Shown here one piece after another: positions 1 through 28,958 of a DNA stretch of 64,000 bases. Position 1 is the stretch's first letter. Each line of letters starts with the position of its first letter. The stretch comes from an uncultured archaeon (GTDB lineage: Archaea; Asgardarchaeota; Lokiarchaeia; Sigyniarchaeales; SOKP01): the NCBI GenBank assembly GCA_964486045.1, contig CAZALK010000001.1, positions 776,242 through 840,241 on the forward strand, written 5' to 3'. Position numbers and translations under genes: made by a program. The notes beneath the pieces were generated by a model that was not told where the DNA came from, ran no database searches, and saw only the letters and a list, made by a program, of their open reading frames with translations.

Positions 1-2
1 GA

Positions 3-10396: not shown

Positions 10397-10915
10397 GTGA
10401 GAACTATCAGAGAAGAAACAGATTATACTGAAGCGATCGAGACCTATAAAAACGAGCCGTTTATTATTTTAGAACCATGGGGTAGGAGTATTGACCATTT
10501 ACGCCTAACAATCATAGGAAAAAAAGGAACTCCCTATGGAGGAGGAAAATTTGTATTTGAAATTAAATTTCCAGAAAATTATCCATTCGCACCCCCTTAC
10601 GCTTATGCTGTTACTTTAATGTGGCATCCAAATATAGACTCCTCAATTCCTCCTGGAAAGCTTAATATATGCTTGGATCTTATTAATCCGGATTTAGTTG
10701 GGAAGGTAGATGCAAGTACCGGAGCTTCAGGGTGGACTCCGAGTAAAACATTAACAAATATAATAGAAGCTTTAAAAGGTATGATGCACTATGAAGCTCC
10801 CTTCTTTAATCCAGGAGATCCACTAAACCATGAGGCTGGAGAACAGTATTTTCGAGCTTTAAAGAAGTTCGAATCTAAGGCTGCGGCATGGTGTAAGAAG
10901 TATGCAATGGACTAA
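10397..10915 (+). CDS. ubiquitin-conjugating enzyme E2
   Basis: GTPYGGGKF, FPENYPFAPP, WHPNI, ICLDL (catalytic Cys codon 10670-10672), WTPSKTL, DPLNHEAG. Confidence 0.95.
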   Translation: MRTIREETDYTEAIETYKNEPFIILEPWGRSIDHLRLTIIGKKGTPYGGGKFVFEIKFPENYPFAPPYAYAVTLMWHPNIDSSIPPGKLNICLDLINPDLVGKVDASTGASGWTPSKTLTNIIEALKGMMHYEAPFFNPGDPLNHEAGEQYFRALKKFESKAAAWCKKYAMD

Positions 10916-11414
10916 AAAGAGGCTGTTGTAAACAACCGAAACACGTATCTGAGCAATCTATCTAATAAACCAATATTTTAATCTATTTATTTTCTTAAAA
11001 AGTTTTTAGGAATTGAAATATATGCCACAACATGAAGGAAACCATTCAATGATTATTTTCTATTTTTATTTTCTATTTTTATTTTCTAAGTAAATAATTA
11101 ATTGATTCAAGAACTTACATTTCCCTCTCTTTAATAGAGTGTTTGGGAATATATTTATTATTTTTTATATTATTTTTTTTATAAAACTTTGACTGATTAC
11201 TTTTAGGAACTTTTTCTTTTTTCTGCTCTTTGCCTGATCCGGTTGACCTAAGCCTTTTCCCTTTATTTTTCCTCTGATAATTAGCGTTTTCTTCTATTAA
11301 GCTGGAAATAACTTCTACTATCTTATCAATTGTGGCGTTTTTTCAACCTGGATTTGTTTTATAACATAAATCTTTTTAAAAATAATTTGATTCTACAAAA
11401 TATCAGATTTAAAA

Positions 11415-12296
11415 GTGAAATTATTGCTCAAAAAATCAAAGGGATTAAAAGCTAATTATATCGATTTAAATAAATTTGATATATCTTTATTCAAAGGAGT
11501 TTTAGCAGAAAAAGCATCAAAAATAATACCAAAGATGTTTGCAGGTATTCAAAAAGCCCGAAGAGATTACAAAGAAGAATTGAAAAGCCCTCTATCAGAG
11601 AATCAAAAAGCACACCCGGAGTTGTGGGATGAAATTGTTGAAAAGTCTCAATCTTTTGGAATAGATCTTATTGGTTTTACCCCCATTGATGAAAATTTAA
11701 TCTTCGAAAAAGATTATGTAGGAGGAATTGAATTATTATACAAAAACGGAATTGTATTAGGAATGGAAATGGATTATGATGCAATCAACACTGCTCCCGA
11801 TCCCCCTGCTGGTTTAGAATCTCTTAGGATTTATGCTGAATTAGGAGATGCTACGAACAAATTAGCAGATTTTATAAGATCTAAAGGCTTTAGAGCTATT
11901 GCTTGTCATCCATTAGGTGGGCCCATTCTTTATCCTGCTATGGCAGTTAAAGCAAATATAGGGAGAATAGGAAGACAAGGGCTCTTAATCACTAAAAAAT
12001 TTGGTCCTAGACAAAGATTATCCTTGATTTCAGTAAATGCTTGGCCACTTCCGGAGAATCAAGATGACACATTTGAAATTTCGGAGTATTGCGCGAAATG
12101 TAGACGATGCATTAATTTTTGTCCTGTAAAAGCTATTATGGAAGAACCAGTTGTAAATGATGATGGAACAATAACTCGTATCAATAGTGACAAATGTTTT
12201 GAGTATTTTTACGAAACTACTGGATGTTCAGTATGCATAGAAAAATGTCCATTTCATAAAACTGGGTATCAAGTAATGTATTATAGGCGATTATAA
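11415..12296 (+). CDS. QueG/reductive-dehalogenase-like cobalamin and 2x[4Fe-4S] protein
   Basis: GIDLIGFT, AVKANIGRIGRQGLLITKKFGPRQRL, CAKCRRCINFCPVKAI, C...CSVCIEKCPF. Confidence 0.8.
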   Translation: MKLLLKKSKGLKANYIDLNKFDISLFKGVLAEKASKIIPKMFAGIQKARRDYKEELKSPLSENQKAHPELWDEIVEKSQSFGIDLIGFTPIDENLIFEKDYVGGIELLYKNGIVLGMEMDYDAINTAPDPPAGLESLRIYAELGDATNKLADFIRSKGFRAIACHPLGGPILYPAMAVKANIGRIGRQGLLITKKFGPRQRLSLISVNAWPLPENQDDTFEISEYCAKCRRCINFCPVKAIMEEPVVNDDGTITRINSDKCFEYFYETTGCSVCIEKCPFHKTGYQVMYYRRL

Positions 12297-12326
12297 ATAA
12301 ACATTATAATTTAAGATAAAAGAATC

Positions 12327-12944
12327 ATGAAGAGCGTATCATTTAAAGGCAAAAAAGTTATTGTTTTTGATCTGGATGGTACAATTGTAAGATTGTCTGT
12401 AGAATGGGTATCTTTAAAGAACAAATTAATGAACGATTATTCAAAAATATATGACGAAAGTTGCTTCTTTAAGAGTGTCTCTGCTTGTTTAAATAAAGTC
12501 GTGGAAAGAAGTGATAATCATGTTTTAGAGTCTTTTTTTAAGATTATTCGTAAATATGAAATAGAGAAGATACAAGAAACTCAGCTTATAGAAGAATCTG
12601 TTTTTTTTATTAAAAATAAAGAGTTATTTGGGGTAAAGGAAAATACTAAATTGACTATCTTATCTCTTAATGCAAGAAGAACAATAATTTCTTCTTTAAA
12701 ACTGGCAAAAATACGTAGTAAATTTGATTTTATTATAGGAAGAGAAGATGTAAGAAAGTGGAAACCAAACCCAGAGGGACTTTTAAAAATTCAAAATCAT
12801 TATAAAGTAAGGAAGGGAGAAATGATATACTTCGGAGATTTAAGGAAAGACATTTTAACAGGGGAAAACGCAAGGATCGATACCTTTCTTATAAACGATT
12901 TAATAAGTTTAGTAAGTAAAAAAAGCGATTTCAAGAATAATTGA
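12327..12944 (+). CDS. HAD-superfamily hydrolase
   Basis: FDLDGT (motif I), KPNPEG (motif III), GD...D (motif IV). Confidence 0.9.
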   Translation: MKSVSFKGKKVIVFDLDGTIVRLSVEWVSLKNKLMNDYSKIYDESCFFKSVSACLNKVVERSDNHVLESFFKIIRKYEIEKIQETQLIEESVFFIKNKELFGVKENTKLTILSLNARRTIISSLKLAKIRSKFDFIIGREDVRKWKPNPEGLLKIQNHYKVRKGEMIYFGDLRKDILTGENARIDTFLINDLISLVSKKSDFKNN

Positions 12945-12947
12945 AAA

Positions 12948-14531
12948 TCACATAAATGCTATTACAACATTATATTTTTTAATTTCTGATTCTGCTAAAG
13001 CTTTACCTAAAGGACTTAAAGTTATAATATCGTTGCTCTTTATTTTTAAGGAGGTTAGTTTGATATTGGGGTCTTTTAATGAAGGCATATAAGGATTCCA
13101 ATAAATTTCTTTAGTCATGGAGTTAGTTATCATCCATAATTCAGGATCTAACTTGTGTTCTGAAATTTCCATTGCTTTAAAAATGTAATCGACATCTGCA
13201 TCAAAAGGCACAACAATTTGAACATTTTCTTCACCTTCAATTTCCCCACAAGCAAGACAGTCATCTCTTTTTAGAATATGTAGGTGATCAAATTGGCCAT
13301 AGATCCCATTGTAATTGACATATGGAGGTTCCATGGGTGCACCAATATTTCGACCATTGACTCTGAATAGAAGTTTAAGTGCCTCTTGGGATTCAATACT
13401 AGAGATAATAGAACTAACTGTTTGGATTGCTGGTATTTTATTTCCGAGGATATTCTCCATTTCTTCAAATTTGTAATCAGGACCGAATGTTTCATTGATG
13501 TTTGCCTTCCAATCTGCAGTCTCTTTTTCAGTTAGGGATAGTCGTTCTTCTTCTGCTACATTTTCATTGAATACTCGTTCCCGTAGTTTTTCCAATTCTC
13601 CTTGGGCAATTTCTTTTAATTTAAGCACTTCATCGTTTAGATTGAGATCTGGTTTATGTCCATATTTTTTTTCGAATTCAACCTCCGCTTTTATAACACA
13701 GTGATTTCGATTGCGCGGTAGTCCTTTTAAAGTACATGCAGCAACTAATTTATCGTCAGCAGGGGGTATAGGTACTAAACACCTATAACATGGAGTTTGA
13801 TCTAAAATCTCAGGAGCGTACTTCCAGTCAAACACCATCTCAATTTCTTTCCTAAACTTTTCTATTAAAGGATTTATTTCCCTTTCCTTGATTCGTCCAA
13901 TTTCTTCTTCTAATTCATCAATTCTTCTTTGAGCTTTAAAATATTCAGGATATTCCATTTCTGTAATGTCCCATAATCTTGTTTCAACTAAATTCTTGAT
14001 TTCCCTTTCCCTATTTTTATATTCTATCTTGGAATCTTTAGGAATTACAACTTGAACATGCCCTTCAAAGCCTACAGTTCCCCCCTCTACCATTGGTTTT
14101 TTCATTCTAAGACAGATTTTGTTCAAGTCTAGTCTTGCATTAAAATTATCTAAAGCTGCAATTACCACATCTGATTCTTCATAAGCGGACATTGGTAATT
14201 TTTGAAGTTTTTCAAAATAAAAATCAATCTTTACGTATGGATTCATTTCTTTCAATCGTTCAGCTGCAACTTCTGCTTTCGGTCGTCCTTCATCTCCAGG
14301 TCTGAAGAGCATTTGCCGTGATAAATTTGAAGTCTCTATTGTGTCTAAATCGATCAAAATAAGCTTACCAATACCCATCAGTGTGAAGTCCTTAGCAATT
14401 TCGCATCCCAACGCTCCGATTCCTACAATCATAATGCAGCCATTTGAGATAACTTCTTGATCCCAACCATCGATGAGTTGTTGTCTTGCATACATTCGTG
14501 ACTTAACAATATCTTCAATCTTTTCTGTCAT
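12948..14531 (-). CDS. ubiquitin-like-protein activating enzyme E1 (ThiF adenylation domain, catalytic-Cys domain, C-terminal ubiquitin-fold domain)
   Basis: YARQ, GIGALG, DLDTIETSNLSRQMLF, ALDNFNAR, Zn pairs CYRC and CLAC, ACTLKGLPRNRNHC, KIPAIQTVSSII. Confidence 0.9.
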   Translation of the reverse strand: MTEKIEDIVKSRMYARQQLIDGWDQEVISNGCIMIVGIGALGCEIAKDFTLMGIGKLILIDLDTIETSNLSRQMLFRPGDEGRPKAEVAAERLKEMNPYVKIDFYFEKLQKLPMSAYEESDVVIAALDNFNARLDLNKICLRMKKPMVEGGTVGFEGHVQVVIPKDSKIEYKNREREIKNLVETRLWDITEMEYPEYFKAQRRIDELEEEIGRIKEREINPLIEKFRKEIEMVFDWKYAPEILDQTPCYRCLVPIPPADDKLVAACTLKGLPRNRNHCVIKAEVEFEKKYGHKPDLNLNDEVLKLKEIAQGELEKLRERVFNENVAEEERLSLTEKETADWKANINETFGPDYKFEEMENILGNKIPAIQTVSSIISSIESQEALKLLFRVNGRNIGAPMEPPYVNYNGIYGQFDHLHILKRDDCLACGEIEGEENVQIVVPFDADVDYIFKAMEISEHKLDPELWMITNSMTKEIYWNPYMPSLKDPNIKLTSLKIKSNDIITLSPLGKALAESEIKKYNVVIAFM

Positions 14532-14653
14532 TCAAAAAATCCTCAATTTTTTTAGATATACTAATAATTTAATTATCAAAATTTAAACTCTTTTAGATGA
14601 AATTAAAAGGGTGATTACTTCTAAAATAGTTAACTACTTTAGGAATAAGTGAA

Positions 14654-17600
14654 TTATTTTTTTTTTTTTTCCCCCGCCTCTTTAATCAATCTTTTTAAGT
14701 TATTTACTTCTTCTCTCTCTTTAGACTTTTGTAATTTTTCTTTAAATCCTGCTTCATCTTCCTCTCTTTTTCCTAATTCATGAATGAGTTCTTCTTTAAT
14801 TTTTATTAACTCCCCTACTTTTATACGAAAATCCTTAGATTCCTCTAAAATCTTTATTTTTTCTTGTTCTTCAATTAATTTTTTATTTAATCTCCTTTCT
14901 TCAATCAGTCTAGTTATTTCATCAGCAGATTGACGAACCTCACCAATAGTTCCTTTTAACTTTAGTTCTTCAGTTTTAATTCTATCTTCTTCTCTTTTTC
15001 TTTGTCGTTCTAATTGTTCTTGAATCTCATTGATCCTAATTTCTTCAGCTTTAACTCTTTCTTCCATTACTTTCATATTTTTAATCTCTGTTTCTATGTA
15101 TTTTATTTCTTCATGCCAGCCTATTTCTTCAAATTTTAGTATAGCTTGATCATAATTATCGTTGGCTTTTTTAAAATCATGATACGCTGCTTTTTTTTTT
15201 CCTTCATCAATTAATCTTAAACCTTCATCTTTTGTTTGATCTGAACGTCGCTTAGTTAACAGTAATGCTCTATATTGCCTTTCCTGCTCTCGTTTTAACT
15301 TTTCTTGTTCCAATCTTCTTAATCTGACTTCTTCCTGAAATATCTCATATTCCTTTTGTCTTTCTATTTGCGCAACTTCCTCTAATTGTTTCTTTTCATA
15401 ATAATTAGTTTGTTCTTGTTGTAAATCTCTTATTAGTGCATTCAAATTATTAATCTCGGGTTCCCATCCAATATTTTCTTCTAAAATATTCCTAGCTAGA
15501 ATATATAATGAAATTGCTTTGTCATAGTCAGGGATAGATTGTTTTAAATATTTTCCTGCTTCTTCTAAGAAGGAATAAGCTGATTCTCTTATATTCATTT
15601 GTTTCTGAATAACTTTTTCTCTTTCTTGAACAACTAACAGATGAGCTTTTTTCTTTTCCCTTTCTAGTCTTTGTCTTTCTTCAATTAATAACTGTAAGTC
15701 CTTTTCTTCTTGTATCTTTTCTAATTCTCTCTGAAATTTTAATTCTTCAGTCTTTTCTTTTTCCTTCATAATTAGTTTAACTTTAGTCACCATAGTATTA
15801 ATCGAATCGGTAGGAAAATTGATTTCATTTAAAATAAGCTCTGCCTTTCTATACATTTCGATTGCATGTTGATATTGGGTTTGTTTAAGATGAGATTCCG
15901 CTTTATTTAAAATTTTAAACGCTTGTTGTTTTCTCTCTTCCATCATTGACTTTCTTCGATCACTTTCTTCTAATTGTATTTTTTTTGCTAGTAATCGTTC
16001 TCTTTCAACCTTTGCTATTTCGGTAACCTTTTGCTGTAATTTCCATTCATCTTTATCCTTCTGTAGATAAAATTCAAAGGTTTTTTGTTTTTGCAGTTGA
16101 GATTCATTTTTTCTTTCTAGAACCTTTTGAATCATTTCTCTAATACCCTCAGTTGGGAATCTAATCTCGTTAAGGATTATTTCTGCTGAATAATAATATT
16201 TTAAAGCTTTATCATATTGAGCTTGATTCAAGTAATTTTCAGCAACTTCAAGAAAGTTAAAAGCCTCATTTCTTCTTTTTTCGTTATACTGATGTCTTTC
16301 CCTCTGCTTTTCGTATTCAATTTGTTTAGTTTTTGTCTTTAACTCACTAATTTTTATACCTTCCCGGATTTTTTGCTGGAACTCTCCTTCTTCGCGTTTT
16401 TTTTGAAGTAAAATCTCCAAGTGCTTTTGCTTTCTTAATTTATTTTCTCTATTTCTATCATGAACCTTGTAAATCATTTCTTTAACTGCTCCTGAAGGGA
16501 ATCCTATTTCACTTAAAAATAATTCTGCTTGGCGATATTTATCAATTGCCTCTTCATATTGACCTTTAATTAAATCCTTTTCAGCATCGTCCATTAAACT
16601 AAATGCCTTTGTTTTTTGGTGTTCTAACAAATTTGACAAATCTTCACGTTTTAGAATTTCAATTTGTTGTTTTCGTAATCTTTCTTTTTCTCTTTGAATA
16701 TTACGATTGATACTTGCTTGGAATTTCTCCTCTTCCTTTTGCTGCTCACTTAATAAGTGTTGTTCCCTTTCTTTCTTCTTTTCTATCTCTCTTTTTCGAT
16801 CATTAATAATATCTATAGTTTCATAGAATAATTTCAAATATTCTCCAGTCCACCCAATTTCTGTTAATATTACTATAGAATTATTGTATTTTGTCAAAGC
16901 GTTATCAAAATTATTATCTTTAAGCAATCTATCTCCATCTTCAATTAGTTTAAATGCTTCCTCTTGTTTAATTAAATTTTGGGTTGAAGTAAGTTTTTTT
17001 CTTTCTCTAAATTGTACCTCCTTTATTGCTATTTCTTTTTCTCGTTGTTGTTGTTGATCTATTTTTTCTAAGAAATCAAATCGAGCTTTATCATCTTCTA
17101 TTGCCTTTTCTAACGATCTCTGTTTCAATAAATCGTTTTCCCTTTTCTTGCTTTGAATACCTAGAATTGTTTCCTGAATGATAGGGATTTCATCAATCCA
17201 TTGGATTTGAGCAAAAATATTTGTTACCTCAAAATAAATTTCCAACGCCTTATCATAATTCGTCTGTGAGAGAAAAATTTGAGCATCATCTAATAATTTA
17301 AAGGCATATTCTTTTTGTTTCTCACGATAAGCAAGTTCTTTCTCTCGGTTCCTTAGAACAATTTGTTTATGCTTTAAATCTTCTTGCTGGATCCTTATCT
17401 CTTTTGAAATTTGTTCCTGAAAAGATTTTTCCAACTTTTCTTGTTCTAAAACTTCACTTAAATCTCTCTGCTTTTTTAATTCTGCCTTCCGCTTCCTTTC
17501 TTCAATTACATTTATGGCGTTTTCGATTAACTTTATTTCATCACCCCATTCAATTTCTTCAAAAAGTACTGTGGCATTTTGATATAGCTTTAGTACCTCG

Positions 17601-20600
17601 TTAAAATTACCTTTTTCCAAATGAGATTGTGCTATTTCTAATATGTTGAAGGCTTTCTCTTTCTTCTGTTCAGTTATTAGTCTAATGTCTTCCTGTTTTT
17701 TCAGTTTTTCCTGCTTTTCAATCATTTTTTGCTGTTCTATTCTAACTTTTTCAACAATTTGTTGTTGAAATATCAACTCCTCCTGTTCCTTCCTAGTCTC
17801 TAGCTCCAATTGCGTTATAATGTTTAACTCCTCGGTTCTCCTTTTTTCCTGAATTTTCTGAATCATTCCTTGTATAATTTCAGCTGGAAAACCAATTTCA
17901 TTTAGCAACAATTCAGCCTGTCGATATTTTTTTATTGATTGGTCATATTTACCTTGGTTCAATAAATTTTCTGCATTGGTCATAATTCCAAATGCTTCTG
18001 ATTTACGAGTTTCAATGCTTGATAATGTTATCTCGCGTTTTTGTAGTAGAATTTCTTTAGATTTAATTTTTTCTTGTTCTTTTTTCAAATAATCGGCTAT
18101 TTTTGCTTGAAATTGCTCTTCTTCTTTCTGATGATTCAAAGCTAATTTAAATTCAGTTTGGTGTGCTTTTTCTTTTTCTGACTTCCTCTCTTGTATAGTG
18201 CCAATCGTATCATTTAAGATTTTTAAGTAGTGTGTTCCCCACCCAATTTTATTTAATAATTCTATGGCTTCACGATAATTTTTTAAGGCTTCATCATAGT
18301 TTTCTTCGATAAGTAACGCTTCTCCTGCTTCAATCAGTTTAAACGCTTCTTGTTCTTGAGTTAAATTCTGATCAGATATAAATTTCTCCCGTTCCAGGAA
18401 TTTAAACTCCTTTATAGCATCCATCCTTTCTCTTTCTCTATGATATTTAACTTGCTCTACAAAAGCCCTTTCCTTAACCTCCTTCTTAATAGCTTTTCGT
18501 AACTGCTTTTGTTTATATAATATTCTTTCTTTCTTTTTCTTCTCAATATCTTGTATTGCTTGTGTTAATAATGGAATCTCATCTACCCATTGAATTTGGG
18601 TAAATATGCTTATTACTTTATGATAATTTTCAAGAACTTCATCGTAATTTCCTTGCGAAACTAATATTTGAGCATTTTCTAACAAATTAAACGTTTCTTT
18701 TTTTCTTTCTTCACGATAAGCAAGTTCTTTTTCTCTTTCTCTATGTATAATCTCTTTTTGTTTTAATTTATCTTGGTGTGATTTTAACTCTTTTGTTAGC
18801 TGTTCTTGAAAATTTTTTTCTTGCTTATCTCTTTCTAAGTCTGCTTGTATTTTGATCTGCTCCTGTAATGCTGCTTCTCGTTTTTTATTTTCAATTTCTA
18901 TTATTGAATTTTGAATTAAGCTAATTTCATCTTTCCATTGAGCATCAGCAAAGAAGTTAATAGAGTATTGCAATATTTCGATAGATTCGTCATATTTTCC
19001 TTTAGATGCTTCTTCTTTTGCTTGTTCAAGTAACTTAAATCCTGCTTTCCTTCTTTCTTCTTGATATTCTAAATCTTCTGCTCGTTCTTTTAATTCAATC
19101 TCTTTTTTCTTTATTTTTTCACGTTCTTGTTGTAAATTTTTAATAATTTGCATTTGAAAAGCGTCTTCTTCCCTCTGTCTTTCAATGGCTTCCTGCACCT
19201 GTTTTTGTTCTATTAATTTTTGATTTTTTCGTAACTCTTCAACTTCTAAAATTGAATTTTCAATTACTGCTATTTCATCTTTCCACTGAATTTCTGCAAA
19301 AATATTTCCTGCATTTTGATATGCTATAATTGTATTTTCATATTCTCCCTTTTTTATGAAATTGAGAGCAGAATCTAAATATTCGAATGCAACCTTTTTT
19401 CTCTGCTGAAAATAAATCAATTCTTTTTCTTTATCCTTTAATATAATCTCTTTTTGTTTTATACGCTTACGTTCCTTGTTTAACTGATTAACAATCTGAA
19501 TTTGAAATTCTAATTCTGATTTTTCTCGCTCCTCTAATTTCTGCTGAACTTCATATTGTTTCTTAAATTGTGAATTTTTAATTTTTTTGACATTTGAAAT
19601 CGTGTTATTGATTGTAGAAATATATGTTTCCCATCCAGGTCCTAAGTTTTCAATTAGATTTAGAGCTTCATTGTATTCACTAATGGCATCGTCATAATGT
19701 TTTGCTCGTAAGATGGTATCAGCATTACTTAAAATATTAAATAGTTCTTTCTCCTTCTTAGCTTCTCCAATTCTTTTTTCTTCATGCAGACTTCTTCTCG
19801 AATCTAGTTCCTTAGCTGATTCTAATATTTGCTCTTGTTGTTTTCTAGATATAGATTTCTGAAGATTTTTTAAATCTCTTTCCCTCCTTTGTCTCAACAA
19901 TACTGCATTCTTTTCTCGATCCTTCTTCTTTGTTATGTCTTCTATTAAATTAATAATTGGATGGATATATGAATCCCAATCTATGGATTTAAATAATTCA
20001 ATGGCGTTCTCAAATTTTTGAATAGCTTGATCATAATTTTTCTCCATTTCGAGTCGTTTACCAATATCTATGAGATTAAATGCATCATTTTGAATAGCTT
20101 CCTCTTTTTTCTTTTTTTCTTCAAATTTAATTAACCTTTCTTTCCCTAACTCCGATTCGGATTGTTTAGTTTTCTCCACAATAATTTTTCCTTCTATTTC
20201 GGTAACTGCTTGTTTCTGCTGAGATTGGAATTTTTCAAATTGATCTTTGTCTTTTTTAAGCTTTTCAATAATAACATTTATTTTTTTAGTTTGTTCATTC
20301 CAACCAATCGAATTCAACAATTCTATAGCTCTTTCATAATTCATTATCGCTTGATCATATTTTCTTTCTTTTTCAAAGATTTTTGCTTTATCAATATGAG
20401 CAAATGCATGGTCTTGTTTTTCTTCTTCTTGTTTTTTCCTTGATCTATATCGAGCTATAGATTCCGCTTTATCAACGCTTGTTTTTTGCCCGAACATATC
20501 CACAATTTCAATGTTTTTATCCTCTAATCCCTTTAGATATTCCTCAGATTGACTCAAGTCTTGAGGTTGTTTCAATTTCGTTAGTTGTTCTCTTTTTGAA

Positions 20601-21019
20601 ACCTCACTAAGATTTTTAATTTTTAATATAACATTTTCTAATTGACCCTCGGACCAACCAGATTGAGATAATAAATTAATAGCAGATAAATATTGCTTAA
20701 TAGATTCTTCAAAAAAACCATCAGATTCTAATTTTTTAGCACCTTCTAATAAAGCGAATGCTTGGTCTTGTAATTGCTCTGCTTGAGCTCTTATCTGAGT
20801 CTGTTGGTATATTTTCTCTTGTTTCAAAGAATTTTTTAGTTCATCTATTCTGTCATAGATATCATTAACTCTATGCATTAAATATCCGCTTTGCTTTAGG
20901 AACTCTACAGCATTTTCATAGTTTGATATTGCTTGTTTTGGATTTTTCTCTTCTTCAAATTTTTGAGCAAGTTCTAAAAATTTAATAGCTTCTTTAGCTA
21001 ACTCTTCTGGATTTTGCAT
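14654..21019 (-). CDS. giant helical repeat protein (18 MIT/TPR-like units separated by E/K/Q/R-rich coiled-coil segments)
   Basis: 2121-aa ORF. The unit AF.LL..A......G.Y..AI..Y..A...L..I[GQ][WF] can be counted 18 times at roughly 116-aa spacing. No TM segment or signal peptide is visible. Confidence 0.85.
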   Translation of the reverse strand: MQNPEELAKEAIKFLELAQKFEEEKNPKQAISNYENAVEFLKQSGYLMHRVNDIYDRIDELKNSLKQEKIYQQTQIRAQAEQLQDQAFALLEGAKKLESDGFFEESIKQYLSAINLLSQSGWSEGQLENVILKIKNLSEVSKREQLTKLKQPQDLSQSEEYLKGLEDKNIEIVDMFGQKTSVDKAESIARYRSRKKQEEEKQDHAFAHIDKAKIFEKERKYDQAIMNYERAIELLNSIGWNEQTKKINVIIEKLKKDKDQFEKFQSQQKQAVTEIEGKIIVEKTKQSESELGKERLIKFEEKKKKEEAIQNDAFNLIDIGKRLEMEKNYDQAIQKFENAIELFKSIDWDSYIHPIINLIEDITKKKDREKNAVLLRQRRERDLKNLQKSISRKQQEQILESAKELDSRRSLHEEKRIGEAKKEKELFNILSNADTILRAKHYDDAISEYNEALNLIENLGPGWETYISTINNTISNVKKIKNSQFKKQYEVQQKLEEREKSELEFQIQIVNQLNKERKRIKQKEIILKDKEKELIYFQQRKKVAFEYLDSALNFIKKGEYENTIIAYQNAGNIFAEIQWKDEIAVIENSILEVEELRKNQKLIEQKQVQEAIERQREEDAFQMQIIKNLQQEREKIKKKEIELKERAEDLEYQEERRKAGFKLLEQAKEEASKGKYDESIEILQYSINFFADAQWKDEISLIQNSIIEIENKKREAALQEQIKIQADLERDKQEKNFQEQLTKELKSHQDKLKQKEIIHREREKELAYREERKKETFNLLENAQILVSQGNYDEVLENYHKVISIFTQIQWVDEIPLLTQAIQDIEKKKKERILYKQKQLRKAIKKEVKERAFVEQVKYHRERERMDAIKEFKFLEREKFISDQNLTQEQEAFKLIEAGEALLIEENYDEALKNYREAIELLNKIGWGTHYLKILNDTIGTIQERKSEKEKAHQTEFKLALNHQKEEEQFQAKIADYLKKEQEKIKSKEILLQKREITLSSIETRKSEAFGIMTNAENLLNQGKYDQSIKKYRQAELLLNEIGFPAEIIQGMIQKIQEKRRTEELNIITQLELETRKEQEELIFQQQIVEKVRIEQQKMIEKQEKLKKQEDIRLITEQKKEKAFNILEIAQSHLEKGNFNEVLKLYQNATVLFEEIEWGDEIKLIENAINVIEERKRKAELKKQRDLSEVLEQEKLEKSFQEQISKEIRIQQEDLKHKQIVLRNREKELAYREKQKEYAFKLLDDAQIFLSQTNYDKALEIYFEVTNIFAQIQWIDEIPIIQETILGIQSKKRENDLLKQRSLEKAIEDDKARFDFLEKIDQQQQREKEIAIKEVQFRERKKLTSTQNLIKQEEAFKLIEDGDRLLKDNNFDNALTKYNNSIVILTEIGWTGEYLKLFYETIDIINDRKREIEKKKEREQHLLSEQQKEEEKFQASINRNIQREKERLRKQQIEILKREDLSNLLEHQKTKAFSLMDDAEKDLIKGQYEEAIDKYRQAELFLSEIGFPSGAVKEMIYKVHDRNRENKLRKQKHLEILLQKKREEGEFQQKIREGIKISELKTKTKQIEYEKQRERHQYNEKRRNEAFNFLEVAENYLNQAQYDKALKYYYSAEIILNEIRFPTEGIREMIQKVLERKNESQLQKQKTFEFYLQKDKDEWKLQQKVTEIAKVERERLLAKKIQLEESDRRKSMMEERKQQAFKILNKAESHLKQTQYQHAIEMYRKAELILNEINFPTDSINTMVTKVKLIMKEKEKTEELKFQRELEKIQEEKDLQLLIEERQRLEREKKKAHLLVVQEREKVIQKQMNIRESAYSFLEEAGKYLKQSIPDYDKAISLYILARNILEENIGWEPEINNLNALIRDLQQEQTNYYEKKQLEEVAQIERQKEYEIFQEEVRLRRLEQEKLKREQERQYRALLLTKRRSDQTKDEGLRLIDEGKKKAAYHDFKKANDNYDQAILKFEEIGWHEEIKYIETEIKNMKVMEERVKAEEIRINEIQEQLERQRKREEDRIKTEELKLKGTIGEVRQSADEITRLIEERRLNKKLIEEQEKIKILEESKDFRIKVGELIKIKEELIHELGKREEDEAGFKEKLQKSKEREEVNNLKRLIKEAGEKKKK

Positions 21020-21208
21020 TTTAAATGAATCTATTTAATTGTAATTTGAATTAAGAAATAACAATAATTTCTCTTACTTTAATGTATCCCAACTAAGTAA
21101 TTAAACTTTTTATATGGTGATAATTATGTTAACTAAAATATAGAGTACGCTAATTGTTTTTGGAGTTACTCTTAGAAAGAATTTAAAATTATTTAAAAAA
21201 ATAAATTT

Positions 21209-23179
21209 ATGGTAAAAAACGAAATGGATTTAAAAAATAAGAATATCCTTATTGATTTTGAGCCAATTTCAAGAAGAGTTTTACTTACAAACGATATATC
21301 AATCTATGATCTTCTTTCAGAATTGAGCATCCGAATAAGATCAATATGCGGTGGTGCAGGTACATGTGGAAAATGTAGAATTTTAATCCAAAAAGGTAAA
21401 GAATATTTAATTCCTCCAGGTAAAACTGAGAAAAATTTCTTAGATCAAGGAGAATTGAAAGAAGGATGGCGTTTAGCTTGCCAATCTAAAATAGATATGA
21501 GAAAACTTCATTCCCTAGAAAAAGTTACTACACCACAATTTCGAATATTCCTACCAAATGAGTTAATCCTTGAGGAATTTAATATCCTTACTTCTGGAAT
21601 GAATAATGAGGTAAGATTATTTCCCATGGTTAAGAAATATTATCTTGAAGTAAATAGACCTTCTTTAAAGGATCCAAAAGCGGATGTTGAAAGAATTATC
21701 ACTAAACTCCTTTCAGTGGATGAGGATTTAAGGAATATAAATCAAATTAATGTCGATTTCAAATTGTTAGATGTAATACCTAAATTATTAAGGGAAAATA
21801 ATCATAAAATAACAATTGCGTTATGGAATAATAATACTATAATAGCATGTGAGCCGGGAAACACGGCTAATGACAATTATGGAGTTGCATTTGATATCGG
21901 AACCACAACAGTAGTAGGATATTTACTTAATCTAAATAGCGGCAAAATCCATGCTTTAAGTTCATGTTTAAACAGCCAGACTGCGTATGGGGAGGATCTA
22001 ATAACTCGAATAACTCTCATAAAAAATGATAAAAAGAATCTTGATGTACTAAACTCCACCATAATTTCTGATATGAATGAAATCCTCTCGAAAGTATGTA
22101 TTAATGCCAGCGTTGACTCCTCTCAAATTTACGAAGCGAGCATTGTGGGAAATTCAGTAATGCACCACATTCTTTTAGGAATAGACCCTATTAACATTGG
22201 ATTAAGCCCATTTATTCCTGTGATACAAAAAGGTTTGAATGTAAAAGCTGAAAAACTAAACATCAACATTCTTAAAAATGGAAACATTTACACTGCTCCA
22301 ATTATCTCTGGCTTTGTGGGAGCTGATACCATAGGTGTAATTTTATCTTCAAAAATATACGAAAAAAAAGACCTAACTCTAATTATTGATATTGGAACTA
22401 ATGGGGAGATCATTATTGGGAACCGTAAAATTTTAGCAGTTGGATCATGCGCTGCAGGTTCAGCATTAGAAGGTGCTCATATAAGTAGTGGTATGAGAGC
22501 AGCTGCAGGTGCAATTGACACTTTAAAAATAATACCCGAAACTTTTGAAGTTAATTTTTCAACAATAAAAAAGAGAAAACCATTGGGAATTTGTGGATCT
22601 GGGTTGGTTGATGCTGTATCCGAAATGTTACGATCAAAAATTCTTACTCGGAGTGGTAATTTTAATAAAGAATTCCTTAATCATGAGAGAATTAATAAAA
22701 CAGAAAAAAAAACTGAATTTATTATAGTTAAAAAAAATGAAACTTCTCTCGGTAAAAACATAACTATCACTCAAAAGGATATAAGACAAATTCAAATGGC
22801 AAAAGCAGCATTTTATTCTGGAATGAGGCTAATTTTAAAACATTTGGGTGAAAAATTAGTACTAAAACAAGTATATTTAGCAGGAGCTTTTGGAAATTAT
22901 ATTAACAAGGGAAATGCCAAATTTATTGGAATGATACCTGATATTCCGGATAATAAAATATACCAGATAGGCAACGCAGCTGGAATTGGTGCTCAACATT
23001 GTTTGTTAAACAAGACTTTAAGAGTTAAAGCTAAAAATTTACTAAAGGAAATTCAATATATCGAAATTGCTGTAAAGGAAGATTTTCAAAAAGAATTCGC
23101 CGAAGCTATGTATTTTCCTCACTTGAATCTAGATTTATTTTCCAGCTTGAAAGAGTATGAAGAAATCCCAAAAAGATAA
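21209..23179 (+). CDS. RACo/ASKHA-type reductive activator of corrinoid proteins with N-terminal [2Fe-2S] domain
   Basis: CGGAGTCGKC...RLAC, FDIGTTTV, YGEDLITRI, GFVGAD, DIGTNGE, GICGSG, LAGAFG, GNAAG. Confidence 0.92.
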   Translation: MVKNEMDLKNKNILIDFEPISRRVLLTNDISIYDLLSELSIRIRSICGGAGTCGKCRILIQKGKEYLIPPGKTEKNFLDQGELKEGWRLACQSKIDMRKLHSLEKVTTPQFRIFLPNELILEEFNILTSGMNNEVRLFPMVKKYYLEVNRPSLKDPKADVERIITKLLSVDEDLRNINQINVDFKLLDVIPKLLRENNHKITIALWNNNTIIACEPGNTANDNYGVAFDIGTTTVVGYLLNLNSGKIHALSSCLNSQTAYGEDLITRITLIKNDKKNLDVLNSTIISDMNEILSKVCINASVDSSQIYEASIVGNSVMHHILLGIDPINIGLSPFIPVIQKGLNVKAEKLNINILKNGNIYTAPIISGFVGADTIGVILSSKIYEKKDLTLIIDIGTNGEIIIGNRKILAVGSCAAGSALEGAHISSGMRAAAGAIDTLKIIPETFEVNFSTIKKRKPLGICGSGLVDAVSEMLRSKILTRSGNFNKEFLNHERINKTEKKTEFIIVKKNETSLGKNITITQKDIRQIQMAKAAFYSGMRLILKHLGEKLVLKQVYLAGAFGNYINKGNAKFIGMIPDIPDNKIYQIGNAAGIGAQHCLLNKTLRVKAKNLLKEIQYIEIAVKEDFQKEFAEAMYFPHLNLDLFSSLKEYEEIPKR

Positions 23180-23441
23180 AATAATGCCTAAAAAATAGCA
23201 TTGCCTTAATTGTATTATTATTATCTCTGAATCACAATATTGTATAAATTAGAATTAGAATGACTAAAATTGTGTTTAAGTTTTTGTGAATATATTTATA
23301 TTTTGAACATATTAAATCTATAATTTAATTTGTATTAATAAATTAAATAAACTATTAAATATCATAATTTTAATATTAATTTATATAAAAAACAAAATAA
23401 TTAATAATAAAAATCAAAAAAGGCGACGTGAGTAGACCTTA

Positions 23442-23966
23442 ATGTCAAGTTTTAAACTGAAAGTATTACTTACTGGCGCGGCTGCCGTCGGTAAGACAAG
23501 TCTGGTTCAAAGATTCATCAAAAAAAGATTCCAAGCTAATTACAAATTAACAGTCGGAGTTGACATTTTGACTAAGGATGTAGAATTCAGACCTGGGGAA
23601 ATAGCAACTTTAAGTATTTGGGATATAGGAGGTCAACAACGTTTCGAATTTATACGGAGCACTTTCTATAAAGGAGCTGCAGGAGCATTATTAGTTTTTG
23701 ATTTAACCCGAGAACAAACATATACAGAAACAAGGAAATGGCTCACTGAGATAAAACAATTCGCTGGAGAGTCAATCCCGTTTGTTTTAATTGGAAACAA
23801 AGTGGATTTAGTCGAAGATGTAGGAGAAGTAATAGATAGGGATGAAGTTCGTGCATTTGCAGAAAATGAAGGTAGTATATATATTGAAACATCTGCTAAA
23901 ACGGGAATTAATGTTGATGAAGCTTTCACTGAGCTTACAAGTCGAATTATTGATTTCAGAACATAG
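23442..23966 (+). CDS. Rab-like small GTPase (no C-terminal prenylation motif)
   Basis: G1 GAAAVGKTS, G2 TVGVD, G3 WDIGGQ, FYKGA, LVFDLT, G4 NKVD, G5 ETSAK. Confidence 0.95.
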   Translation: MSSFKLKVLLTGAAAVGKTSLVQRFIKKRFQANYKLTVGVDILTKDVEFRPGEIATLSIWDIGGQQRFEFIRSTFYKGAAGALLVFDLTREQTYTETRKWLTEIKQFAGESIPFVLIGNKVDLVEDVGEVIDRDEVRAFAENEGSIYIETSAKTGINVDEAFTELTSRIIDFRT

Positions 23967-24047
23967 AACCTGTTTTTAAATTCGATTCTCAGAACTAATA
24001 CGCTTAATATCTTATATTTTATTATGTGAAATATTATTTAAATTGGT

Positions 24048-25457
24048 TTAGGATGGAAAATCCTCATATAAATCATTATGAATAACATTTATTGCGTCAA
24101 TTAGTTTTTCTCTCTCAATCACTAATGATAAATTTAACTCATCATAACTTTGAGAAATTGCTTTAACTTTTACATTTTTTTTATCCAATGCACTGAAAAT
24201 TTCTGCCTTTGTTTTAGTTTCAAGGATTTTTAAACCTGTGATATTAATTACGGCAACATCTTCCCATTTAATTTCAAAAAATTCTGAAAAGAACTTTGAG
24301 TTGTTTAATGCTTCTAATGCTTTCTTTGAATCTTCCGCATTGACAATAAATGAAGTGCTTATTTCAGATGAGCTTTGTGCTACTAACGATACACTTATTT
24401 TATTCTTACTCATAGCTTTAAAAATTTTTGCTAAAACTCCAGGGACGTCTACTAAACTGCCAGATATTACATTTATAATCGTTGCAAATTCCACAGCTGA
24501 GATCCCTTTTATTTGTTCCTTATCTGAGTGATCTGAAATTTCTGTAAAATTATCATCTAATGGTTTATTAAAATTTCTAATTTCTAGAGGAATTTTATAC
24601 TTTTCTATCGCTTCTAAACATTTAGGGTGAAGGATCTTTGCCCCAAAGTTAGCAATGTGCTTTGCTTCATCATAATCCAAATTTTTAATAAGGAATGATT
24701 CGGGAACATATTTTGGATTTATAGCCAATAATCCGTCAACATCTTTCCATAAAATAACTTTAATATTTTTATCGTTTCCGATACTGTAAAGAGAATGGGC
24801 GAGGATTGTGGCTGTATAATCTGAGCCCCCTCTTCCTAAGGTTGTAATATAACCAATTTTATTTCTACCAATAAATCCTGTTAAACACATTACTACATCC
24901 TTTTTTGGGTTTTCTAAAAGAGGAAGTAACAGTTTTTGAATCCGAGAATTTGTTAAATCATATAGAGGATATGCATTATTAAATTCATCATTAGTTATGA
25001 TAATTTTATTTGCAGGAATATAAACAGAATCCAAACTACAACTTAAAAGATATTGGTTTAAAATAAATGTCGAAAGAATTTCCCCAAAGCTAAGAACATA
25101 ATCTCTATAATAAGGTTCTAATCCAAATTCTTTTATATCCGCAAACGCATCATCTAATTCACTAAGTTTGATATCAACCCAATCTTTTGCTCTAATATAA
25201 TGTTCAGAATCCTCTTCAAATATTTGTTCGATTATATCCAAATGTTTTTTTTCAATCAAGGATATATTCTGATCAGTTACTTTTACATCTTCTAGTCCCT
25301 GAGCAGTTTTTAAAAGTAAATCTGTTATTCCCTTTAATGCTGAAACAACAAAGATTTTTTTTACATCTTTATAGACGTTTGTAATTGACAAAATTTTTTT
25401 GAATGCTGTTTTATCTGTGAAACAAGAACCTCCGAATTTCATAACAATTATTGGCAT
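24048..25457 (-). CDS. lysC: aspartate kinase with two ACT domains
   Basis: VMKFGGS, VVSA, SFGEILS, TTLGRGGSDYTA, DVDG, GAKILHP, two C-terminal ACT repeats. Confidence 0.93.
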   Translation of the reverse strand: MPIIVMKFGGSCFTDKTAFKKILSITNVYKDVKKIFVVSALKGITDLLLKTAQGLEDVKVTDQNISLIEKKHLDIIEQIFEEDSEHYIRAKDWVDIKLSELDDAFADIKEFGLEPYYRDYVLSFGEILSTFILNQYLLSCSLDSVYIPANKIIITNDEFNNAYPLYDLTNSRIQKLLLPLLENPKKDVVMCLTGFIGRNKIGYITTLGRGGSDYTATILAHSLYSIGNDKNIKVILWKDVDGLLAINPKYVPESFLIKNLDYDEAKHIANFGAKILHPKCLEAIEKYKIPLEIRNFNKPLDDNFTEISDHSDKEQIKGISAVEFATIINVISGSLVDVPGVLAKIFKAMSKNKISVSLVAQSSSEISTSFIVNAEDSKKALEALNNSKFFSEFFEIKWEDVAVINITGLKILETKTKAEIFSALDKKNVKVKAISQSYDELNLSLVIEREKLIDAINVIHNDLYEDFPS

Positions 25458-25569
25458 AAGTTTTAAACACCTTTTTGTAATTTTTAATTCTTGTAAATTT
25501 ATATTTTTTCAGCAAAAGTTAATAAATTTTAAAGAAAAAGTAAAATTTCAGACCCGATTCTCAAATAAT

Positions 25570-26442
25570 GTGATTGACTTTCATTTGCATTCAACTAGTT
25601 CTGATGGTTTAGACACACCCTCCCAATTAATAGACAAAGCAATTGAACTTAAATTAAAGGCAATAGCTCTAACCGATCATGATACTATTATTGGATTGGA
25701 AGAATTTTTATCTTATGGAGAGGAAAAAGAATTAATTGCAATACCCGGCTTAGAAATTTCGATTCGACATGAAATTGAGAGAGAATTGATAGATGTTCAT
25801 GTTATTGGATTAAATATAGACTACAAATCCCCACAGCTAATAAAAACAATTGATGATCAAATTAAAGGTCGAATAGAGCAGAAAAAAGCCATCTGTAAGC
25901 GTTTGAGAAATGAGTTAGAATTTGATATCACGTTCGAAGAAGTTAAGAATAACGCAGGTGGAATGATAGTTGGTCGACCTCACATTGTAGAAATCATGAT
26001 TAAAAATAATCCACAATTAATCAAAGGAAAATCTAAGAATGATCTGTTCAAGATGGTTAGTCTTGGCGGTATTGCATATGTTGATCGAGAAGTTGAACTC
26101 AACTTTGAGGAATCAATTGATTTGATTAAAGCCGCTGGAGGTATTCCAATTCTTGCACACCCTGGAATTTATGAAGTGTCAGATCGTGCAAATTTTATTG
26201 AATTTTGTGTTAACACAGGGATTGAAGGAATTGAAGTTGAGTATATATATTCAAAGAACAGACCATATTATGAAACAGATAAAGCCGAATGGGCTCAGGA
26301 GTTTTTCCCAAACTTCTATCGAAAAATCGCTGAAAAATATAATATATTAATGTCTGGTGGTTCAGACTATCATGGAGGGAAAAAAGGGATAAGAATGGGA
26401 GAAGCAAATGTCCCAAATGAATATTTAACAGGGATAATTTAG
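25570..26442 (+). CDS. PHP-domain metallophosphoesterase (TrpH/YciV-like)
   Basis: DFHLHSTSSDG, ALTDHDT, GRPH, LAHP, GGSDYHG. The start is moved to the GTG at 25570, which removes the overlap with lysC. Confidence 0.9.
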   Translation: MIDFHLHSTSSDGLDTPSQLIDKAIELKLKAIALTDHDTIIGLEEFLSYGEEKELIAIPGLEISIRHEIERELIDVHVIGLNIDYKSPQLIKTIDDQIKGRIEQKKAICKRLRNELEFDITFEEVKNNAGGMIVGRPHIVEIMIKNNPQLIKGKSKNDLFKMVSLGGIAYVDREVELNFEESIDLIKAAGGIPILAHPGIYEVSDRANFIEFCVNTGIEGIEVEYIYSKNRPYYETDKAEWAQEFFPNFYRKIAEKYNILMSGGSDYHGGKKGIRMGEANVPNEYLTGII

Positions 26443-26458
26443 GTTAAAGTTGGTGGTC

Positions 26459-28426
26459 TTATTTCTCTAAAAGTTTTTGTAATTCTTGGATTTGAATCTC
26501 AATTTTTTCTTCATATTCAATAATTTTTTTCTTTTTTTCTTCAAGTTCTTCCGCAGAAATTTCTCCCATTAGTTCTTTCATATCAAAGTCTAATTTCATT
26601 TTATATAAGTCTGCCTTCTTTAATTTTAGATCAATAAGGGTTTTTTTTGCATGTTCGGCTTGTTTTTTGTCAATAACAAGTGGTGTTTCCTCTGATTCTA
26701 TGAGTTCTTTTGAGAGTCCTTCTAAATCTTTGGATTCTTTTGGTATTTTTTCTGATTCTATGGATTCATGTTTTTCAATAGATTCTTTTATTTTTGAGGC
26801 TATGGGTGGTTGGGGTGGAGTACTTTGGCTGTTTTTTTCAAAGAGTTCGGAAGGTCGAGATGGTGATCTTACTTTTAATGATTTATCACTAACTTTACTT
26901 TCATCCGGTTTTTTTGGTTGATCTAATTCCATTTTACCTATTTGATTAGGTTCATTCTTAACATGACCGTAAGATGATGTTTTAAGTTTTGATTTAGCAC
27001 CTTTAGGGACTACTCCTATAGTTTTTGGTCTGATTTTTACCATATAATCTTCAGGATTTAATTTTAATCCTACTTTTACAACATCAGCTTTGAGGTTCTT
27101 CTCGATTATTTTATCTTGTAATCTTTTACTAGATTTTATCCATTGTCTAGAAGTATCTTGCTTTATATTTGGTGATACTGGTACCTTATCCTCTATATCT
27201 TTTTTTTGCGTTGATGTTGATGGTGGTAGTTTGGGTGCTGGAGGTAAAGCTACTTCTAAGGTTTCATTTTGGATTGAAGGTTTGGGTTTGCTAACATTTT
27301 CCGATATTTCTTCTTTTTGTGATTCTATATATTTTTCAGAATTATCGGATTCTATTGGATGCGCAGGAGTTGGCTGGGGTGCTCCAACTTGTTCTAACAT
27401 TATCTTGATTTTTTGGGATTTCTCATAAAATTCTTTCCCTAATGAATCATCTCCTAAATCTAAACATAGATAGCTAATTTTATCAAATAAAAAAGCAGCT
27501 TTTTCAAAATTTGCACTTTTTAATGACTTTGTAGCTTCTTCGATTAACTGATCTCTTTCTAATAGTGGTTTTAATAAGGGAGAGATTTCAGCACTCATTT
27601 CTAAAATATCGGCAATAATTTGAATCATTTTGTCTCGATTTTCTGGTTTCTTCGCAATCATAGAGTATGATTTTAAACCTAGAATTCTTTCTATATTAGC
27701 GGGATTTTCTGCTCCACCTAAATCTTGTTTATTTCCAATTACTGCTATGTGGGCATGAGGTGCTTGGTCTTTTATCAGTTCCAAAAAAAATTTGCTTTTT
27801 TCAACATTTACTAAAGTAGAATCCGTAATCAAAAGTACGGCATCACTTCCTTTAATGAAATTACTCCAAAGATAGCTAAATTGTTCTTGTCCAGCAAAAT
27901 CCCATAGATGAAAGTGTAATTTCCCAATTCTAACAGTAGCGATATCACCTGTAATTGTAGGTATATGTTGTATGGGTATCTCTTCCGCTCTTATTAATCG
28001 AGTTATTGTTGTTTTCCCCACTCCTGAAAATCCAACTAACGATATCTTTGGACGGAGGTTTTTATGGTTTACATCTACTATGGGATCAAAAACTTCAAAA
28101 GTTTTTGCATCAAAGCGATGTTGTAAGATTTCTTCAAATAAATCAACAAATTCCCTTCTACATTTTACTAATTCCTTTTTTATGTTCTCAAATTTATCTG
28201 TTAAGCCAGTAACAAATAAAAACACCAAGCCCAGGCTCTTTTTCGTTATATATGATACTCTAAACTTATAGTAATCATGAAATTCAACAGTATCTTCTTC
28301 ATTGAATGATTCGTCGTCCAATATTTCTGTAACAAGATAATTTAAAGCTTCATGTTTAAGTGCTTTGCCAAAATGTCTATAATATAAAAGTTCGTCTCCT
28401 TTATATATGAAAACTTGTCTTAATAT
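26459..28426 (-). CDS. longin-like domain + Arf-like small GTPase + helical bundle + Pro/Lys-rich linker + coiled-coil fusion protein
   Basis: G1 GFSGVGKTT, HIPTI, WDFAGQ, NKQD. The frame extends 35 codons upstream of the TTG at 28321 to an ATA at 28426 (ILRQVFIYKGDELLYYRHFG), which completes a longin-like N-terminus. Confidence 0.8.
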   Translation of the reverse strand: MLRQVFIYKGDELLYYRHFGKALKHEALNYLVTEILDDESFNEEDTVEFHDYYKFRVSYITKKSLGLVFLFVTGLTDKFENIKKELVKCRREFVDLFEEILQHRFDAKTFEVFDPIVDVNHKNLRPKISLVGFSGVGKTTITRLIRAEEIPIQHIPTITGDIATVRIGKLHFHLWDFAGQEQFSYLWSNFIKGSDAVLLITDSTLVNVEKSKFFLELIKDQAPHAHIAVIGNKQDLGGAENPANIERILGLKSYSMIAKKPENRDKMIQIIADILEMSAEISPLLKPLLERDQLIEEATKSLKSANFEKAAFLFDKISYLCLDLGDDSLGKEFYEKSQKIKIMLEQVGAPQPTPAHPIESDNSEKYIESQKEEISENVSKPKPSIQNETLEVALPPAPKLPPSTSTQKKDIEDKVPVSPNIKQDTSRQWIKSSKRLQDKIIEKNLKADVVKVGLKLNPEDYMVKIRPKTIGVVPKGAKSKLKTSSYGHVKNEPNQIGKMELDQPKKPDESKVSDKSLKVRSPSRPSELFEKNSQSTPPQPPIASKIKESIEKHESIESEKIPKESKDLEGLSKELIESEETPLVIDKKQAEHAKKTLIDLKLKKADLYKMKLDFDMKELMGEISAEELEEKKKKIIEYEEKIEIQIQELQKLLEK

Positions 28427-28466
28427 GATGTTTCACCAACAAAATTTAAATTAAATTCTACTGAGA

Positions 28467-28958
28467 TTACCTCGAGATGTGTCTTACTAGATCTTTAATT
28501 ATAGAATATTTCCCCTTTTTTATTTCTTCTTGTTTCAGAGTATCCCCGATTCTTGTTAATTCTTTAGAAAAATCAAACACAGAAAATTCTTTTATCTCTT
28601 CCGTTTTTGAACTCTCACTTAATTTCTTCAAAAATAAACTAATACTAGGCATAAATTTTGCTAAATTAACATTCAAATCTAATTTTGATATTAAAATCAA
28701 TTTTTTTGTGAACGAAAATAGATAATGATGTTCCTGAGCTTCTAGAGCAAATGAATTTATCTTTTTTAAATTTAACTCACTAGCGATTTGTTTTGAGTTT
28801 GAAATTAGTGAGAGTAACCCTTGAGGAATAATTTTTCCTTCAGAAAATTCTTTAATCTTCGATCCTAATATTATTCCGTACTTATTTGATATAGCACACT
28901 CCGCATTTAGATCAGATTTTAATTGCGCAATGATATCCTCGTAATTAATATTACTCAT
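28467..28958 (-). CDS. Roadblock/LC7 (MglB/LAMTOR-like) domain protein
   Basis: Helix followed by CAISNKYGIILGS, a helix ending ELNL, and three short strands (SFALEA, YLFSF, LILISK), which is the roadblock topology. It lies directly upstream of the GTPase gene. Confidence 0.6.
   Translation of the reverse strand: MSNINYEDIIAQLKSDLNAECAISNKYGIILGSKIKEFSEGKIIPQGLLSLISNSKQIASELNLKKINSFALEAQEHHYLFSFTKKLILISKLDLNVNLAKFMPSISLFLKKLSESSKTEEIKEFSVFDFSKELTRIGDTLKQEEIKKGKYSIIKDLVRHISR

Follow-up and report, generated by a model that had tools for sequence, protein, structure and literature searches.

The interval at positions 10397-28958 of a 64-kb stretch of Lokiarchaeial DNA (hereafter the window; genome G000, contig C1:776242-840241) encodes an E2-type conjugating enzyme, an E1-type activating enzyme, a giant protein built of MIT-like repeats, a Rab-like GTPase, a longin-Arf-like GTPase and a Roadblock-fold protein, with metabolic genes interspersed. 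Our comparative analysis indicates that this interval is probably a block of conserved gene order handed down in a single Lokiarchaeial family; within this block, several independent eukaryote-like modules stand side by side among housekeeping genes, co-located because of shared ancestry rather than a shared pathway. The first module, E2 and E1, would provide the enzymes of a lineage-specific conjugation system with scattered genes, whose ubiquitin-like modifier (Ubl) is likely an 83-aa protein encoded on contig C10. In the second, the Roadblock gene and the downstream longin-Arf-like GTPase gene would form a separate operon, most likely a regulator-switch pair of the MglB/MglA or Ragulator/Rag kind. 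The Rab-like GTPase would be the third, an independent conserved singleton.

The source genome comprises 5.18 Mb in 45 contigs, with a G+C content of about 30%. Gene identities were drawn from Pfam, PDB sequence searches, Foldseek and two AlphaFold (AF2) models, one of E1 and one of the Roadblock protein. By these means we identified every gene class that an earlier note had read from the letters of the window: E2, Uba3-like E1, MIT giant, Rab-like, Arf-like, Roadblock and IFT52-like. Gene order was compared among 24 genomes of the window's genus, six further genera of its family (f1) and other Lokiarchaeial families (f2 to f6), of which f3 is represented by one genome.

Gene order within and beyond the family

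Within f1, across the 24 genus genomes and the six other genera, the order is E2, HAD hydrolase, E1, giant, RACo, Rab-like GTPase, aspartate kinase, (PHP), Arf-like GTPase, Roadblock, DUF6541, epimerase. The metabolic members of this block, a RACo/AcsV-like corrinoid activation protein (21209-23179, + strand), an aspartate kinase (24048-25457, - strand) and a PHP-family phosphoesterase (25399-26442, + strand), hold their positions as faithfully as the genes for eukaryotic signature proteins (ESPs). In genus g13 of f1 just E2-HAD-E1-giant is left. Beyond the family, the f3 genome keeps the order RACo-MIT protein-E1-HAD-E2 with unrelated insertions, and its Roadblock pair and Rab orthologue lie on other contigs; the E2-HAD-E1-giant core is therefore kept in two families, f1 and f3. 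In f2 and f4, E1 and E2 are more than 1 Mb apart in closed genomes, and their neighbours are unrelated enzymes and sensor kinases. For example, E1, E2, the Rab-like gene, the Roadblock pair and the Ubl gene are found at 3.32, 0.22, 3.35, 2.15 and 1.09 Mb of closed genome G032, and at 1.59, 0.50, 1.54, 2.85 and 4.22 Mb of closed genome G038. Conservation of the neighbourhood, which the earlier note had named as a check on its proposal, is thus seen in f1, where the whole block is collinear, but not in f2, f4 and partly f3, where the modules are dispersed. The adjacency of E1 and the giant, together with HAD and E2, is the sole cross-module association that outlives the f1 block. An apparent linkage between E1 and GTPases in f2 was considered and rejected: the GTPases upstream of E1 in G030, G034, G038, G036 and G032 are of two different types, neither of them orthologous to the GTPases of the window.

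A second check suggested in that note was whether ESP genes are denser here than in the genome at large. Genome-wide we counted about 116 Pfam-defined ESP genes, 89 of which are Ras-superfamily matches; adjacent genes of the contig C5 ubiquitin operon were merged in this count, so that operon is undercounted. The five Pfam-defined ESP genes within the 18.5-kb interval are the genome maximum on the merged count, which makes its density the highest or second highest. When 116 ESP genes were placed at random, however, a maximum of at least five arose somewhere in the genome with P = 0.07. The density is real, but it exceeds chance just marginally and belongs to an interval selected in hindsight.

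The E1 and E2 enzymes

The E2 gene (10397-10915, + strand) encodes a UBC-fold protein that matches Pfam UQ_con (PF00179) with 89 bits. Its WHPNI...NICLD segment aligns with the active site of yeast Ubc1, including the HPN motif (residues 77-79, counted from the translation) and the catalytic Cys (residue 92). Orthologues are 91-94% identical within the genus and 70-76% identical across the order.

The E1 gene (12948-14531, - strand; ThiF, PF00899, 198 bits) encodes a single-chain enzyme of the canonical type. Besides its adenylation domain it has a helical insert of about 85 aa, a catalytic-Cys domain and, at the C-terminus, a ubiquitin-fold domain. Two CxxC zinc pairs are both invariant among its orthologues. 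The inserted domain carries the thioester motif AACTLKGLPRNRNHC, of the form CT...P...HC, whose Cys266 (codon 13734-13736) is invariant in 13 orthologues and is the predicted catalytic (thioester) Cys of the enzyme. Residues 434-527 adopt a beta-grasp (ubiquitin-fold) domain in the AF2 model at a predicted local distance difference test score (pLDDT) of about 88. A profile of the orthologues was closest to the active adenylation domain of Uba1 (E 8e-54), and the top Foldseek match of the model was UBA3 (2nvu_B, E 1.6e-21). Structural alignment ran through residue 527 only with UBA3, SAE2, UBA1, UBA6 and UBA7; alignments with SAE2, UBA1 and UBA3 ended at residues 522-527, and those with MoeB, ThiF and UBA5 at residues 419-431. 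By analogy with the established E1/E2 mechanism, E1, probably as a homodimer, would adenylate the C-terminal Gly of the Ubl and then bind it through a thioester to Cys266. The ubiquitin-fold domain at the C-terminus of E1 would recruit E2, which would receive the Ubl on its HPN-associated Cys.

The domain order of adenylation domain, Cys domain and ubiquitin-fold domain is shared with the UBA3-Ubc12-NEDD8 and SAE2-Ubc9-SUMO cascades, as are the form of the thioester motif and a full-length structural alignment confined to canonical E1s. Unlike the E1s of those cascades, the window enzyme is a single chain without a separate inactive partner subunit and retains zinc CxxC pairs of the MoeB type; nor is it a canonical pseudo-heterodimer, since it has one adenylation domain. 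In a quick maximum-likelihood tree, for which the Shimodaira-Hasegawa approximate likelihood ratio test (SH-aLRT) was the only support measure and deep nodes were weak, it is no nearer to eukaryotic E1s than are other Asgard E1s. The f1, f2 and f4 forms group together (SH-aLRT 95) within a well-supported seven-member clade, which is nested among archaeal E1s of about 410 aa, of the operon type; a weakly supported node (83) makes this assemblage sister to the Uba1-like proteins, which are about 1000 aa long. We therefore rejected the ideas that the window E1 is the nearest archaeal kin of eukaryotic E1s or a transfer from a eukaryote.

The f4 orthologues of E1 (705-980 aa; L044:2989-5367, L045:1613-4555 and L050:2427-4544) have an extra, degenerate N-terminal ThiF domain and no helical insert. 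This is an archaeal architecture of the Uba1-like single-chain pseudo-heterodimer kind, which appears to have arisen independently, and such a fusion in a sister family bears on how the eukaryotic E1 architecture may have evolved.

Between E2 and E1 lies a gene for a HAD-IA hydrolase (12327-12944, + strand; HAD_2, 85 bits), whose best NCBIfam match, pyrophosphatase PpaX, reached 75 bits and so fell below the cut-off of 218. It is the most widely kept neighbour of E1, adjoining it in families f1 and f3 and, within f2, in genus g5. That it removes the pyrophosphate of the adenylation step is pure speculation. In genus g5 the GTPase, E1 and HAD genes are spaced by merely 2-7 nt (HAD at L039:16960-17568).

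The MIT-repeat giant beside E1

The giant (14654-21019, - strand) is a protein of 2121 aa, located 122 bp upstream of E1 and co-directional with it. Its 18 MIT-like three-helix units recur about every 116 aa, with charged coiled coils between them. The whole protein matches Pfam MIT (PF04212) with 93 bits against a cut-off of 30, and single stretches cover positions 2-36 or 3-53 of the 66 in the model. Its three-helix unit matches the first two helices of the model of the MIT domain, known from Vps4 and spastin; unlike those proteins, the giant sets 18 units on coiled coils and has no enzymatic domain, and its binding of ESCRT-III is putative. The HAD phosphatase and the giant, the sole E1 neighbours that persist beyond f1, would be candidate accessory, scaffold or substrate proteins of the conjugation module.

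This persistence raises the possibility that E1 and the giant are a functional pair, with the giant as scaffold, E3-like adaptor or main Ubl substrate and with E2 and the HAD phosphatase as accessories. In all f1 genera examined, even g13, which has lost the remainder of the block, the giant immediately precedes E1 in the same orientation, and in f3 a shorter MIT-repeat protein of 894 aa lies 2.5 kb from E1. However, no MIT-repeat protein lies beside E1 in f2 or f4, the two genes are 0.7-1.5 kb apart in some genomes of the genus, and the 122-bp spacer in the window holds a TATA-like TTTAAAT and a Shine-Dalgarno motif of its own, so that co-transcription of giant and E1 is not implied. The genome also encodes a paralogous giant on contig C8 whose neighbours are different. 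We regard such a pairing as unlikely. A more specific form of it, in which the giant serves a dispersed, Lokiarchaeia-specific Ubl-E1-E2 system as its dedicated platform or chief target, and the E2-HAD-E1-giant core couples Ubl conjugation to a rod of about 0.2 µm with 18 MIT-like docking sites, possibly for partners of the ESCRT-III type, is distinctly unlikely.

The paralogous giant, of 1761 aa (C8:162.0-169.3 kb; L071), follows genes for a Ras-like GTPase, a proteasome alpha subunit (psmA) and a 133-aa open reading frame (ORF). A link between proteasome and giant was considered here and rejected; three genomes of the genus share the order, which f2, f3 and f4 lack.

A third E1/E2 pair and its candidate modifier

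The archaeal ubiquitin operon of the Caldiarchaeum type consists of Ub-E1-E2-RING-Rpn11 (PMC5654768, PMC6043591), and ubiquitin systems have been surveyed across Asgard archaea (PMC9192718). The earlier note had found no Ub, RING or JAMM gene in the window, and we agree: Pfam gave no match to Ub, JAMM (JAB) or RING in the 64 kb, and a scan of all six frames for a hidden Ubl returned just two GG ends, both implausible. A contiguous run of Ub, E1, E2 and JAMM genes, which would define the classic operon, is absent from the window and is found on contig C5 (173.0-175.8 kb). A search of the whole genome, also proposed in the note, further revealed a compact set of JAMM, a 305-aa E1 and an E2-like gene on contig C2 (173.1-174.9 kb), which may be a prokaryote-type system and whose E1 has a long branch in the E1 tree, as well as an orphan 83-aa gene of the ubiquitin family on contig C10, which ends in ...ATQAGG-stop and has unrelated neighbours. 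Since the C5 operon and the C2 set are both present, the window E1 and E2 are a third pair. The suggestion of a separate, non-operonic Ubl pathway is therefore upheld, and the conserved, GG-ending orphan on C10, with the same phyletic range, gives this third Ubl-E1-E2 triad of scattered genes a named candidate modifier.

We infer that the C10 protein is likely the modifier of the window E1 and E2 because of their common phyletic range and a set of pairwise context links. In a 301-genome sample of the phylum, Ubl, E1 (its Cys and ubiquitin-fold part) and E2 are all present only in f1, f2 and f5, and Ubl and E1 also occur in f6; a further sample of relatives added homologues of all three in f3 and f4. 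None of the three was detected in any of the 222 genomes of 26 other Asgard families within the phylum sample. The C10-type Ubl is 92-96% identical within f1 and 68-90% identical in other families, and some orthologues carry one additional residue after GG. As to context, the Ubl lies 1.4 kb from E1 in G027, and G033 has a fragment of the Ubl 340 bp upstream of its E1. In G037 (contig C630; L072:366-2452), a free GG-ending Ubl is followed by a 379-aa protein with a C-terminal Ubl-like domain (...ATQSAG) and then by a paralogue of E2, which overlaps the gene of the Ubl-domain protein by 13 nt. The short contigs that carry E1 relatives in f5 and f6 hold no Ubl/E2 operon beside them. A complex prediction for E1 with the C10 Ubl scored 0.10, which counts neither for nor against binding.

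The system resembles the archaeal ubiquitin operon in combining an E1 with a predicted catalytic Cys, a UBC-fold E2 and a GG-type modifier, and in the nesting of its E1 among operon-type enzymes of about 410 aa. It differs in that its genes are scattered with no linked RING or JAMM, in that its E1 is larger, with the 85-aa helical insert and a longer Cys domain, and in that its range is limited to Lokiarchaeia families and the genome has a classic operon as well. The module would work without a linked dedicated E3 or protease.

Alternatively, the window E1 and E2 might be extra enzymes for the operon ubiquitin on C5 and have nothing to do with the C10 orphan. In eukaryotes, one ubiquitin is indeed served by two E1s and many E2s, and the window holds no Ubl. 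However, the context links in G027, G033 and G037 concern the C10-type Ubl, whose range is as narrow as that of the window E1 and E2, and the C5 Ubl, whose C-terminus is ...STAG and not GG, has an E1 and E2 of its own next to it. We think this quite improbable.

Highly conserved motifs of E1, E2 and Ubl were seen to be interrupted by insertions of 27-33 nt, all of which carry a stop codon: in E1 of G018 (L037:4423-4452) and, at the same site, of G019 (L016:1624-1656), in E2 of G018 (L037:458-490) and in the Ubl of G027 (L045:6188-6214). Two of them form helix-bulge-helix folds whose outer helix comes from the flanking coding sequence (z-scores -4.2 and -2.6). The insertions may be mRNA mini-introns of the bulge-helix-bulge type or else artefacts of assembly.

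The Roadblock-GTPase pair and the Rab-like GTPase

The Roadblock protein (28467-28958, - strand) has no Pfam match, PF03259 included, even at E <= 10. It was recognized from its AF2 model, which shows an alpha-beta-beta-alpha-beta-beta-beta-alpha fold (pLDDT 75), and from Foldseek, which returned Roadblock3 of Prometheoarchaeum first (9jue, template modelling score (TM) 0.71, E 7e-6), followed by MglB and LAMTOR. Its gene lies 40 nt upstream of the Arf-like GTPase gene and is co-directional with it. The latter (26459-28426, - strand; called ORF 26459-28321) encodes a longin-like domain, an Arf-like GTPase domain (Arf, 71 bits; nearest solved relative Arf1 in the PDB search), an MIT-like hairpin after the G domain, of the sort also found in the giant, and a low-complexity, coiled-coil tail. 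The conserved N-terminal domain of about 130 aa has no Pfam or Atlas match, and its order of strands and helices is compatible with a longin domain on sequence pattern alone. The conserved N-terminus MLRQVFIY begins 37 codons upstream of the called TTG start, at a place where no ATG, GTG or TTG is found: an ATA (28424-28426) replaces the ATG of the orthologues, and the same is true of G024. This ATA lies 6 nt after a GGTGA Shine-Dalgarno motif, with a TGA stop two codons upstream (28424-28437, - strand), and is the probable, non-canonical start of the gene.

Outside f1, the Roadblock and GTPase genes are adjacent at 7/7 loci in f2 and f3; including f1, theirs is the only unit that is adjacent in each family in which both genes were detected. 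A search of four f4 genomes gave no Roadblock orthologue. The pair moves together, unlinked to E1 and E2. A small GTPase partnered with a Roadblock-fold protein is likewise the arrangement of MglB-MglA, Ragulator-Rag and Asgard Roadblock-GTPase systems; unlike the GTPases of these systems, that of the window has a long low-complexity, coiled-coil tail. Fusions of longin domains with GTPases are known from strain MK-D1, in which GTPase genes are reported to be generally outside operons with Roadblock genes (PMC10933270), whereas the pair described here is a conserved two-gene unit. Matches of regulator and GTPase are reported to be hard to read from Asgard genome layout (PMC10933270), so this unit provides a concrete candidate pair.

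The Rab-like GTPase (23442-23966, + strand; Ras family, 165 bits) has Rab22A, Rab14 and Rab11 as its nearest solved relatives in the PDB search. It is a conserved single-copy orthologue with 63-73% identity across the order. Three closed genomes place it 28-232 kb from E1, and in G026 and G030 it lies on a contig other than that of E1.

It is very improbable that the Ubl pathway, the MIT giant, the Rab-like GTPase and the Roadblock-Arf-like pair form a functional supercluster acting jointly in membrane remodelling: the top-ranking ESP density, the stability of the block over at least seven genera and the MIT-like hairpins common to giant and Arf-like protein speak for it, but the metabolic genes are kept in place equally well, the modules are dispersed in f2, f4 and partly f3, and the density is marginal (P about 0.07) for an interval chosen post hoc. 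The tie to GTPase-controlled membrane remodelling drawn in the earlier note has no comparative support, with E1, E2, the Rab-like gene and the Roadblock pair dispersed outside f1 and the metabolic genes no less well kept inside it. The idea of a genomic wiring between Ubl conjugation and GTPase trafficking in Lokiarchaeia is thereby set aside as unsupported.

Several points nevertheless weigh against reading the interval as an inherited block of independent modules, one of them a conjugation system with the C10 Ubl. The range that Ubl, E1 and E2 have in common is that of a single clade and therefore counts as one evolutionary event, and the window enzymes could serve the Ubl of the C5 operon instead. 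Retention of the E2-HAD-E1-giant core in f1 and f3, together with the top-ranked ESP density, leaves some room for functional coupling of E1 and the giant; moreover, the evidence from f3 comes from a single genome.

Other genes of the window

Between E2 and the HAD gene lies a gene for a 4Fe-4S protein resembling reductive dehalogenase or QueG (11415-12296, + strand), which is no ESP and is present in only part of the genus genomes. The IFT52-type gene at the upstream edge of the window (1-1103, + strand) is the 3' part of a gene of 457 aa that starts 271 bp before the window; at full length (C1:775971-777344) its product matches the GIFT domain PF23355 with 39.5 bits against a cut-off of 27.2, and its ABC_transp_aux score is under the cut-off. 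As this domain is common to bacterial GldG-like proteins, no IFT function is implied for the gene. ARAGORN detected no tRNA in 9000-30000, and a two-intron tRNA-Tyr noted earlier at 9945-10099 was likewise not detected. An HMGL gene (1125-2453, - strand), similar to homocitrate and isopropylmalate synthases, forms one frame of 442 codons that is interrupted by a single in-frame TAA (2037-2039).

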